The position numbers were made by a program, and so were the translations under genes. A stretch of 64,000 nucleotides of DNA from a virus (lineage: Duplodnaviria > Heunggongvirae > Uroviricota > Caudoviricetes), in IMG/VR virus record IMGVR_UViG_2778261268_000002. One strand, given 5' to 3'. Within the stretch, counting starts at the first letter, position 1. Each line of letters starts with the position of its first letter. Shown piece after piece: positions 39,118 to 40,162 of the stretch. The notes under the pieces are model-generated. The model worked only from the letters and a program-made list of their open reading frames with translations. It was not told where the DNA came from and ran no database searches.

Positions 39118-39354
39118 ATGCAGAACAATCCGAACAAATGTCGAACGCTATGGGTGCGGTTATATATTTATGCCGTCCTCTGTTTGATTGTGTCACTGGT
39201 TCTGTATGTTTGGCTTTTGCCAAATATGATCTCATCTAACAGCACAATACTTGTATTGTTGGGAGTCCTTTTCGCGCTCATTTACCCGGCTTTCGCAGTA
39301 GTCTTTTTTCGTGAAAAAACCAGGAAATTAATTAATGAAAAAAACGTTGATTAG
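39118..39354 (+). CDS. Small integral membrane protein
   Basis: 78 aa, two hydrophobic helices; overlaps the start of the downstream lipoprotein gene. Confidence 0.5.
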   Translation: MQNNPNKCRTLWVRLYIYAVLCLIVSLVLYVWLLPNMISSNSTILVLLGVLFALIYPAFAVVFFREKTRKLINEKNVD

Positions 39355-40162
39355 TGCAGCGATTATTTTGGGTTCTTTATGTCTGACCGGATGCGATCGG
39401 GTAGAGCCAGGTAACGTAGGGATCAAAGTAAATAAGCTGGGGGATGATAAAGGTATCGGTGAAGTAGTTGGTGTTGGTCGCTACTGGACAGGCTTGAATA
39501 CTGAAGTTTATATCTTCCCGACCTTTAAGCAAATGAAGACATACGATGAGCCGTTCAGCTTCCAGATGAGCGACGGAACAACCATTGGTTACCACATCGG
39601 CGTAGCCTACAAGGTTGATCCAGCAAAAGTCACAACGGTATTTCAGACCTATCGCAAAGGTGTAGATGATATTACTGATACCGATCTACGCCAGAAGGTT
39701 GCAGATGCTCTGAACCGGTTAGCCAGCAAAATGACCACCGACAAATTTATCGACGGTGGCAAATCTGAATTGCTTGATGCAGCCCTTAAAGACATTCAGG
39801 AAGAAATGACGCCAATCGGCATTCAGGTGATGAGCCTCTCTTATGTAGGTAAGCCAGAATATCCGCCAACAGTTATTGACAGTATTAACGCCAAAGTTAC
39901 GGCAAACCAAAAAACCCTGCAACGCGAGCAAGAGGTCAAACAACGTGAAGCAGAGGCCAACATGCTGCGCGCGGAAGCTGCCGGACAGGCTGATGCTATT
40001 CGCACAAAAGCCCAGGCCGAAGCTGATGCCATTCGTTTACGTGGTGAAGCTCTGCGCCAGAACCCCGGTGTTATGGAGTTGGAAGCGATCAACAAATGGA
40101 ACGGTACATTACCGCAGTATATGACCAGTAATGCCGCTGTTCCGTTTGTTCCGGTGAAATAA
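39335..40162 (+). CDS. SPFH/band-7 (prohibitin-like) domain lipoprotein
   Basis: Signal peptide with lipobox LTGC; coiled-coil Ala/Glu/Gln-rich C-terminal region. Confidence 0.6.
   Translation: MKKTLISAAIILGSLCLTGCDRVEPGNVGIKVNKLGDDKGIGEVVGVGRYWTGLNTEVYIFPTFKQMKTYDEPFSFQMSDGTTIGYHIGVAYKVDPAKVTTVFQTYRKGVDDITDTDLRQKVADALNRLASKMTTDKFIDGGKSELLDAALKDIQEEMTPIGIQVMSLSYVGKPEYPPTVIDSINAKVTANQKTLQREQEVKQREAEANMLRAEAAGQADAIRTKAQAEADAIRLRGEALRQNPGVMELEAINKWNGTLPQYMTSNAAVPFVPVK

Follow-up and report, generated by a model that had tools for sequence, protein, structure and literature searches.

An overlapping gene pair between two tRNA genes

The 64,000-nt stretch of DNA analyzed here, IMG/VR record IMGVR_UViG_2778261268_000002 (hereafter, the window), belongs to a P1-like phage (Punavirus) whose closest megablast matches are RCS47 (99%) and vB_EcoM-Ro157c2YLVW. 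On its plus strand, between tRNA genes that ARAGORN places at positions 38768 to 38854 and 40190 to 40265, lie two genes with ATG starts, one encoding a 78-aa hairpin membrane protein of PHROG 1130 (39118 to 39354) and the other a 275-aa predicted lipoprotein of PHROG 200 with an SPFH (Band_7) domain (39335 to 40162). A reading made from the sequence alone (the sequence-only reading) had described an overlapping two-gene unit between tRNA genes at this place, and both open reading frames (ORFs), their 20-nt overlap (39335 to 39354), and the flanking tRNA genes were borne out. Neither is a chance ORF: the hairpin protein matches the PHROG 1130 profile with an E value of 1.6e-15 and the SPFH protein matches PHROG 200 with an E value of 2.9e-113. 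Both proteins are clear members of their families, which PHROG lists separately. Shine-Dalgarno-like sites precede the two starts, with GGAG located 7 nt upstream of the hairpin ATG and AGGA located 9 nt upstream of the SPFH ATG. In many unrelated phages, a hairpin gene lies next to an SPFH gene or overlaps it (see below); the two form a conserved phage module, and the overlaps of 1 to 20 nt suggest that their translation is coupled.

A predicted lipoprotein of the SPFH family

The larger protein starts with M-K-K, followed by a hydrophobic stretch (residues 4 to 16) and a lipobox, L17-T-G-C20, that satisfies the pattern [LVI][ASTVI][GAS]C and has Asp21 at position +2 (signal peptide with Asp21, 39335 to 39397, plus strand). 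According to the E. coli rule, Asp at +2 acts in Enterobacteria as a signal for Lol avoidance and hence retention in the inner membrane. The sequence C-D-R recurs after the lipobox in 100 of the 101 homologs matched by the pattern, and PHROG 200 itself is annotated as "lipoprotein" (category "other"). The sequence-only reading had also called the protein a lipoprotein, and as a prediction this holds. Most SPFH members are attached to the membrane by a transmembrane (TM) helix or hairpin, whereas the attachment predicted here is a lipid anchor.

The SPFH domain supposed in the sequence-only reading was recovered by profile search. Pfam Band_7 (PF01145) matched with an E value of 9.7e-31 and 107.6 bits, versus a gathering threshold of 23.6, over profile positions 2 to 176 of 176, and was the sole significant Pfam match. 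Based on the Pfam envelope and the structural core predicted by AlphaFold2 (AF2), the domain covers residues 22 to 208 (39398 to 39958, plus strand). The AF2 model built with a 35-homolog alignment had a mean predicted local distance difference test score (pLDDT) of 78 (a single-sequence model with a pLDDT of 47.6 was not used), and the monomer consists of an alpha/beta core (residues 20 to 175), a long helix (178 to 242), a short helix (245 to 253), and a low-confidence tail. What had been described as a long coiled coil thus corresponds to a single predicted helix (39866 to 40060, plus strand), which phmmer and Foldseek alignments to the HflK coiled coil equate with the CC1 wall helix of SPFH cages. 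Near the C terminus lies the motif I252-N-K-W255-N-G257-T-L-P260 (40088 to 40114, plus strand); in a 16-sequence alignment, G257 and P260 are invariant, I252 and W255 are nearly so, and the family consensus I-x-K-W-D/N-G-x-L-P extends to members from Gram-positive phages and a Halorubrum virus.

Searching the model against the PDB with Foldseek, we obtained matches with a probability of 1.0 to HflK (7vhq_E, E = 8.7e-13), HflC, erlin1/2, prohibitin, stomatin, flotillin, the QmcA-YbbJ complex (8z5g, E = 2e-7), and the major vault protein. The alignments to HflK/C, erlin, prohibitin, stomatin, flotillin, and QmcA extend over approximately 240 to 300 columns. A sequence search of the PDB found only HflK (E = 2e-4) and prohibitin-2. 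Those of the matched assemblies that are well known, or whose form is given in titles and abstracts, make cages or rings. We conclude from sequence features and predicted fold that the larger protein is an SPFH family member with a predicted lipoprotein signal and Asp directly after the lipobox.

In the records of RCS47, vB_EcoM-Ro157c2YLVW, Shiga toxin (Stx) phages, and others, the larger protein bears the label "serine protease", which is the one point that speaks for such an activity. No peptidase family in Pfam matched the protein at E ≤ 1, and the label is therefore unsupported; moreover, every fold match is an SPFH scaffold. Its probable source is a name of the type "membrane protease subunit, stomatin/prohibitin homologue", and we give a protease function practically no credence.

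HflK and HflC (7vhq, 7wi3, and 9cz2) resemble the phage protein in having SPFH1/2, a long wall helix, a C-terminal cap region, and a periplasmic facing, the last of these being predicted for the phage protein. Such a protein could join, replace, or compete with the host HflK/C cage around FtsH from the periplasmic side and would thereby alter the FtsH proteolysis of substrates of phage or host origin, such as CII-like regulators, LpxC, or membrane proteins. Among solved structures, HflK and HflC match best in both sequence and fold, the weak NCBIfam matches go to the same two families, the predicted orientation equals theirs, and a role of this type has been proposed by analogy in phage genome papers (PMC8540360; PMC4936722). 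However, with 24.7 bits for HflC (TIGR01932; cutoff, 134.4) and 23.3 bits for HflK (TIGR01933; cutoff, 159.4), the protein falls more than 100 bits below the equivalog cutoffs, and erlin, prohibitin, and stomatin match almost equally well. Membership in either equivalog was rejected on these scores. The cassette also has a single SPFH gene instead of a paralogous K/C pair. The systems also differ in that HflK/C have an N-terminal TM anchor in place of a predicted lipid anchor and cage FtsH, while the phage protein is accompanied by a 78-aa hairpin and has no evident link to FtsH. Further, the phage family occurs in obligately lytic phages, in phages of Gram-positive hosts, and in a Halorubrum virus, so that a role in the lysogeny decision or one specific to E. 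coli FtsH cannot be general; on this ground, PMC8540360 itself calls the role unclear. We therefore consider HflK/C mimicry unlikely.

A two-helix partner that is not NfeD

The hydropathy scan found two hydrophobic segments in the 78-aa protein (residues 17 to 33 and 46 to 62), in agreement with the two-helix membrane protein of the sequence-only reading, and TM helices were assigned at approximately residues 15 to 35 and 44 to 65. Since basic residues flank the pair on both sides (K7, R9, and R14; R65, K67, R69, K70, and K75) and the 10-residue loop between the helices is uncharged, the positive-inside rule fits a topology with both termini in the cytoplasm. The match to PHROG 1130 ("membrane protein"; category "moron, auxiliary metabolic gene and host takeover") covers profile positions 1 to 65 of 66. 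The loop carries the motif L-P35-N-M-I-S39-S-N-S-T (39217 to 39246, plus strand). Across 10 phage lineages, this motif has the form P-x-[ML]-[IV]-S-[AS]-x-[DN]-[ST], with P35, S39, and G49 nearly invariant, and the 10 aligned proteins have little else in common (consensus, V-P-x-M-x-S-A-x-D-T), although 7 of them match PHROG 1130 independently. As a phmmer search of 1.84 billion representatives with the hairpin protein returned just seven clusters, the family is detectable mainly through profiles and synteny.

The sequence-only reading had implied a pair of the SPFH-NfeD type, and this part of it did not survive. No match to NfeD (PF01957) was found in the hairpin protein by Pfam search at E ≤ 1, and two TM helices fill the 78 residues, leaving no room for a soluble NfeD OB-fold domain; an NfeD-type partner was rejected on both grounds. 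The hairpin protein is a two-helix member of PHROG 1130 and not an NfeD protein. In the operon of the QmcA(YbbK)-YbbJ complex (8z5g), a cage of 26 heterodimers (PMC13086221), the SPFH gene likewise has the same orientation as a gene for a small membrane protein to which it is coupled, and the idea of a 1:1 membrane partner located within or beneath the cage carries over. In contrast to YbbJ, the phage partner has no NfeD/OB-fold domain and its gene comes first, and the QmcA cage protrudes into the cytoplasm, whereas the phage SPFH domain is predicted to be periplasmic.

Two further assignments were tried and rejected. Membership among class II holins is not supported by the best holin PHROG (phrog_565, E = 0.2), and the neighbors of the pair are tRNA genes and ban rather than lysis genes. 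Membership among spanins was likewise rejected, as there was no match to a spanin PHROG, the pair does not lie in a lysis cassette, the small protein has two TM helices, and it is the large protein that is the predicted lipoprotein, with an inner-membrane retention signal.

Recurrence of the pair in unrelated phages

Using tblastn, we detected SPFH homologs in 795 of 50,697 phage records (approximately 1.6%). The genus names in these records were led by Staphylococcus (253), followed by Pseudomonas (76), Enterococcus (53), Erwinia (49), Klebsiella (45), Escherichia (40), Burkholderia (31), Halorubrum (28), Caulobacter (26), and Bacillus (25). We compared the gene upstream of SPFH at 17 loci spanning the range of homologs. 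An ORF of 60 to 80 aa with two TM segments lies directly upstream of the SPFH gene, with overlaps within the range of 1 to 20 nt, in P88, PPompW, Erwinia phage EamP-S6 (N4-like), Salmonella phage 7t3 (jumbo), Burkholderia phage E173, and cr106_1 (crAss-like); the overlap is 1 to 16 nt in P88, EamP-S6, 7t3, PPompW, and cr106_1. In Hena1 and KE22 (Vequintavirinae) and in Pseudomonas phage PSA34 (Bruynoghevirus), the hairpin gene is located two genes upstream of SPFH. The ORF in between is a conserved soluble one of 54 to 57 aa in Hena1 (locus L008, 1332 to 1505) and KE22 (locus L009, 1332 to 1496) and one of 72 aa with a single TM segment in PSA34 (locus L012, 1222 to 1440), which may point to a third component in certain lineages.

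The association is also found when the search is enlarged or reversed. In IMG/VR, an intact hairpin ORF lies directly upstream of SPFH at 78 of 80 related loci, and at least one of the two exceptions (L074) is cut by a contig end. Conversely, all four phages found via the hairpin (PhiR41_1, K17alpha62, SonariX, and Pylas) have an SPFH gene immediately downstream; the annotators of Pylas remarked on its hairpin protein, "2 TMDs N in C in". There are three types of hairpin (78 aa, P1-type; 62 aa, lambdoid-type; and 67 aa, P2-type), which are 28 to 46% identical to one another, while the SPFH proteins across them are at least 92% identical. At the nucleotide level, homology between the P1-type and P2- or lambdoid-type loci (approximately 86%; compared with P88 and chromosomal prophages of E. 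coli) starts at the lipobox codons (approximately 39388) and, in P88, ends at the stop codon, so the mature SPFH coding segment is common and the hairpin gene and signal peptide are lineage specific. This pattern could result from modular recombination or from very unequal evolutionary rates.

The genomic contexts point to action during lytic growth. In the P2-like phage P88, the pair lies in the early operon between cox and replication gene A, and in the lambdoid prophage PPompW it is among the co-oriented genes between the cI region and xis-int, apparently, judging from gene order, in the leftward early operon. The neighbors at most loci are DNA metabolism genes or early genes without an assigned role, and the pair also occurs in many phages from virulent families, namely, N4-like, rV5-like, jumbo, crAss-like, and Kayvirus phages. 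The sequence-only reading had put the emphasis on the lysogen, on its fitness and its sensitivity to phages. A role in lysogen fitness is made less likely by the recurrence of the pair across P2-like, lambdoid, N4-like, rV5-like, jumbo, Pseudomonas, Burkholderia, and crAss-like phages, and homologous pairs in early operons and in virulent families weaken that emphasis. As the same reading suggested, the pair could modulate host proteases or envelope stress or exclude other phages; no defense model in PADLOC matched, and the HflK/HflC equivalog scores lie far under their cutoffs.

A related arrangement with a different small protein occurs outside this set. In Kayvirus (mbpV-mbpS), Bacillus phage AvesoBmore, and Halorubrum virus HRTV-18, the SPFH protein has an N-terminal TM helix and an adjacent protein with one TM segment; judging from the sequences, this helix would also put the SPFH domain outside the cytoplasm. 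MbpS of Staphylococcus phage K/P4W is 26% identical to the window protein over 98% of its length and shares the KW-D/N-G motif, and mbpV, like the hairpin gene, is a small membrane protein gene immediately upstream, abutting mbpS. Unlike the window pair, however, MbpS has no lipobox, MbpV has one TM helix and a long charged tail with no detected similarity to the hairpin family, and the two genes lie beside lysis genes.

The Kayvirus arrangement bears on two further explanations. In the first, the pair would be a lysis-timing device in which the hairpin would make pores in the manner of a holin or pinholin and the SPFH cage would cap or sequester it, as an antiholin-like regulator. The hairpin has the size and topology of class II holins and a charged C terminus; mbpV-mbpS lies between lysK and tgl, beside the holin gene, and MbpV is said to resemble holins (PMC7150955). 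In cr106_1, a peptidoglycan hydrolase gene follows after approximately 350 nt, beyond an unannotated ORF of 117 aa, and SPFH cages do cap membrane proteins in solved structures, such as that of stomatin with aquaporin (9zd2). Against this, the holin PHROG match is insignificant, the pairs of the P1-like, P2-like, and lambdoid phages belong to early operons that are well removed from the lysis genes, and most loci are flanked by DNA metabolism or early genes without an assigned role, which makes a lysis-timing function rather unlikely in our view.

In the second, a cage-organized microdomain would serve as a platform for the Sec- or Lol-dependent export or the assembly of phage envelope proteins, by analogy with the flotillin microdomains that serve secretion machinery. 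Such a function has been suggested for MbpS of Kayvirus with respect to Tgl, a lytic enzyme that is secreted (PMC7150955), and scaffolding is given as a general property of the SPFH family (PMC12624060). Over the compared loci, however, we found no conserved exported neighbor, and the hairpin is mostly the sole conserved partner; we consider an export platform quite unlikely.

SPFH modules also lie beside tRNA or tRNA-processing genes in unrelated viruses, as in the window. The neighbors are tRNA-Thr in 7t3 (L007), tRNA-Arg and tRNA-Asn in HRTV-18 (L016), an RtcB-type ligase gene in CcrSwift (L013), a CCA-adding enzyme gene in PMBT37 (L018), and, in Kayvirus, a tRNA module (PMC7150955). This proximity may merely reflect the clustering of accessory genes.

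Alternative cassettes in the tRNA/ban slot

In P1 (NC_005856), the corresponding region consists of dmt, Pban with Oban, a dicF-like region, tRNA-Asn, tRNA-Thr, plp and upl (on the opposite strand), tciA-tciB-tciC, trnI (CAT), ban, and dbn. In a pairwise BLAST comparison, P1 homology ended at window position 38991 and restarted at 40181, 9 nt short of the tRNA gene with the CAT anticodon (40190 to 40265, plus strand), which is the homolog of P1 trnI and marks the right edge of the swap. Therefore, the interval from 38992 to 40180 (plus strand) replaces tciABC. No tciABC sequence is present anywhere in the window, and there is no sequence relationship between tciABC and the SPFH cassette. The trnI-ban segment of P1 is 97% identical to the window, in which ban, the DnaB-like helicase gene known from the annotation of P1 and RCS47 and the promoter-distal gene of the same operon, occupies 40545 to 41915 (plus strand). 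The hairpin/SPFH pair thus sits in the tciABC slot of P1, downstream of an intact C1 operator of the ban operon.

Both contents of the slot are common. Among plasmids in PLSDB, ban was found in 436, 432 of them at a coverage of at least 80%; the SPFH cassette was present (coverage of at least 80%) in 189 of the approximately 432 ban-carrying plasmids (approximately 43%), and tciABC was present at the same coverage in 191 (approximately 44%). Counted separately, the two cassettes look like common alternative alleles. The slot coincides with variable region 7 of P1-like phage-plasmids, nearly half of which have lost tciABC (PMC9603915). TciABC thus resembles the SPFH cassette in its place between tRNA genes of the C1-controlled ban operon and in its frequency and differs from it in sequence; TciA is of the TerB family, with a function predicted by homology only. 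Of 5,426 complete E. coli genomes, 192 (approximately 3.5%) contained the entire cassette and 423 (approximately 8%) an at least partial match, with 201 of the 467 match places in plasmid records. Approximately 230 further genomes had partial matches only, mostly chromosomal and with approximately 86% nucleotide identity. The GC content of the cassette (0.42 to 0.53) is not distinctive.

Transcriptional setting

The ban operon is under C1 control. Upstream of the tRNA genes, the divalent C1 operator Oban (formerly Op72; 37365 to 37392, plus strand, by operator match) overlaps the ban operon promoters and is the presumed control point of the cassette. It comprises an exact 17-mer at 37365 to 37381 and an inverted copy at 37376 to 37392, the Pban/Oban region is 95% identical to that of P1, and NC_005856 annotates Pban with Oban as follows: "controls expression of ban". 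The operon logic follows this annotation and the established control of ban by C1. No sigma-70-like consensus promoter was found between 37000 and 40700, and no terminator-like site was found on the plus strand between the SPFH stop (40162) and ban (40545). The dicF-like region (approximately 37492 to 37594) is kept between Pban and the tRNA genes; Rfam gave no match to DicF in the dicF-like region at E ≤ 0.01.

Because the cassette lies downstream of the conserved C1-controlled Oban/Pban, it would be repressed in lysogens and made upon induction. We infer that it is cotranscribed with the tRNA genes and ban under C1, silent in the lysogen and expressed early after induction. The C1-controlled location and the lack of a consensus promoter of its own further weaken the lysogen-centered role that had been proposed for the pair.

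The same evidence bears on lysogenic conversion, in which the pair, expressed from the prophage, would change the surface, stress tolerance, virulence, or phage resistance of the lysogen. The PHROG category of the hairpin (moron/host takeover) and the alternative content of the slot, the TerB-like tciABC, tied by homology to colicin, tellurite, and phage resistance, are in its favor. So is PM0222 of Pasteurella multocida, an HflK/C-like prophage protein that reportedly occurs in outer membrane vesicles, acts through TLR1/2 signaling, and contributes to virulence in mice (PMC9872710). PM0222, the only experimentally studied prophage SPFH protein found in our literature search, is alike, going by its description, in being a prophage-borne SPFH superfamily protein of 25 to 35 kDa, and it differs in its reported lysogen-side virulence role and location in outer membrane vesicles. 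However, a C1-repressed promoter precedes the window pair, which lacks a consensus promoter of its own, the same module is found in many strictly virulent phages, and PADLOC gave no match; we hold lysogenic conversion to be very unlikely.

A possible envelope-guarding function

We hypothesize that, after processing by signal peptidase II, the lipoprotein is held in the inner membrane by its outer leaflet, so that the SPFH domain projects into the periplasm, and that it oligomerizes, as its solved SPFH relatives (HflK/C, QmcA, prohibitin, erlin, stomatin, and flotillin) do, to enclose a membrane patch within a ring or cage. The hairpin, whose only conserved residues would lie in the short periplasmic loop, may be the membrane-embedded partner or client of this cage in a ratio of approximately 1:1 and, by analogy, the functional counterpart of NfeD/YbbJ. 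The pair would be silent in the lysogen and produced early after induction or infection. This architecture, taken jointly (anchoring, cage, hairpin partner, and early expression), appears probable to us.

As to its biological role, the pair may be an accessory that, acting from the periplasmic side, protects or insulates the inner membrane of the infected cell against threats such as the entry of superinfecting phage DNA, attack by colicin-like agents, abortive-infection effectors directed at the membrane, or premature permeabilization; its role would not be lysogenic conversion. Action during lytic growth is suggested by the many virulent families and by the repressor-controlled early operons, shown or apparent from gene order, in three temperate lineages. 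A conditional, competition-type role at the periplasmic face is suggested by the patchy distribution, by the dispensability of the pair (P1 is without it), and by its interchangeability with a TerB-like cassette. We put this envelope-guarding role forward tentatively, at somewhat less than even chances, and the explanation as a whole, architecture included, we judge to be evenly poised between right and wrong.

Several observations weigh against this explanation. The residue at +2 is Tyr in the homologs of Erwinia phages and Glu in that of KE22. Some SPFH homologs are without a hairpin partner; three loci from phages of Gram-negative hosts have instead a soluble upstream protein (PMBT37) or other membrane proteins (OspOC and CcrSwift). 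A terminator (37555 to 37585), common to P1, is located in the dicF-like region between Pban and the cassette, and an unrecognized internal promoter could express the cassette in lysogens. In PADLOC-DB 2.0, the SPFH protein had no matches and the hairpin protein had one insignificant match (E = 0.029). Finally, our searches of the literature brought up no experimental function for any phage SPFH protein, so that the protective role is proposed from context.

A broader form of the proposal is that the pair is an unrecognized and very widespread phage membrane module, found in phages of Gram-negative hosts and crAss-like phages and, with a different small partner, in Gram-positive and haloarchaeal viruses. 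During lytic infection, it would build a cage at the outer surface of the cytoplasmic membrane, and the caged compartment would block superinfecting genomes or neutralize membrane-directed host defenses. The tRNA/ban slot of P1 would then be a hot spot in which alternative cassettes guarding the envelope, TerB-like or SPFH, are found. In this full form, we regard it as doubtful.

Relation to existing annotation

SPFH cages are structurally well understood in cells. For phages, the searchable literature consists of annotation-level mentions of SPFH proteins and the HflK/C analogy, and the many viral Band-7 models in BFVD include, among the matches listed, none with a functional name beyond the domain. 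Both genes already carry annotations in close relatives ("SPFH domain-containing protein" and, for vB_EcoM-Ro157c2YLVW in RefSeq, "membrane protein"), and the PLSDB/RefSeq rows of P1-like plasmids usually list the SPFH gene alone. The hairpin gene is present and unannotated in LC567820.1 (PPompW, a Stx-phage-associated prophage; locus L005, 2316 to 2504), MT774378.1 (cr106_1; locus L017, 1286 to 1471), and RCS47 (FO818745.1, 77292 to 77525). We found no prior description of the systematic pairing of PHROG 1130 with PHROG 200, of a periplasmic lipoprotein topology with a conserved retention signal, or of SPFH-or-TerB allelism in the P1 ban operon.

The analysis thus corrects a propagated "serine protease" annotation and adds a hairpin gene left unannotated in at least three records. 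It also provides a testable picture, namely, a fixed partner with a conserved periplasmic loop, an orientation at the periplasmic face, and an inferred lytic expression, and the presence of tciABC or the SPFH cassette in one slot offers a natural allelic comparison. If envelope guarding is true, the pair would represent a new class of mechanism in phage-phage and phage-defense conflict; if FtsH modulation is true, accessory genes of phages would be tied to membrane proteostasis in the host.

Neighboring features

The upstream flanking tRNA gene (38768 to 38854, plus strand), tRNA-Ser(TGA) according to ARAGORN, lies in an extra segment (38762 to 38942), and no such gene occurs at the same place in P1, RCS47, or vB_EcoM-Ro157c2YLVW; phage D6 has a tRNA-Ser in the corresponding region. 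Rfam scored this tRNA at 45.1 bits against tRNA-Sec, just under the threshold of 47. The downstream tRNA (40190 to 40265) is Met(CAT) according to ARAGORN, its homolog P1 trnI is annotated as tRNA-Ile2 (ileX-like), and its CAT anticodon is presumably lysidine modified.

Both opposite-strand genes upstream of the cassette are altered. In plp (38263 to 38694, minus strand), the first 41 residues alone match P1 Plp (98%), as the frame is shifted by a 157-bp insertion at 38415 to 38571 that is absent from P1 and RCS47 and has no second copy within the window; upl is truncated at approximately 38761. Directly upstream of the hairpin gene, at 38964 to 39084 (plus strand) and straddling the junction between P1-homologous and cassette-specific DNA, Rfam gave a subthreshold match to STnc100, a gammaproteobacterial small RNA (sRNA) family (40.1 versus 47 bits; E = 1.8e-6; model positions 31 to 147 of 206). 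This stretch could be a leader, an sRNA remnant, or a chance match.

Elsewhere in the window, seven more matches to the C1 operator consensus, with one to three mismatches, are located at 16233, 17904, 34089, 47785, 51409, 51458, and 53551. By chance, 0.4 would be expected, and these sites are consistent with a complete P1-type immunity regulon.

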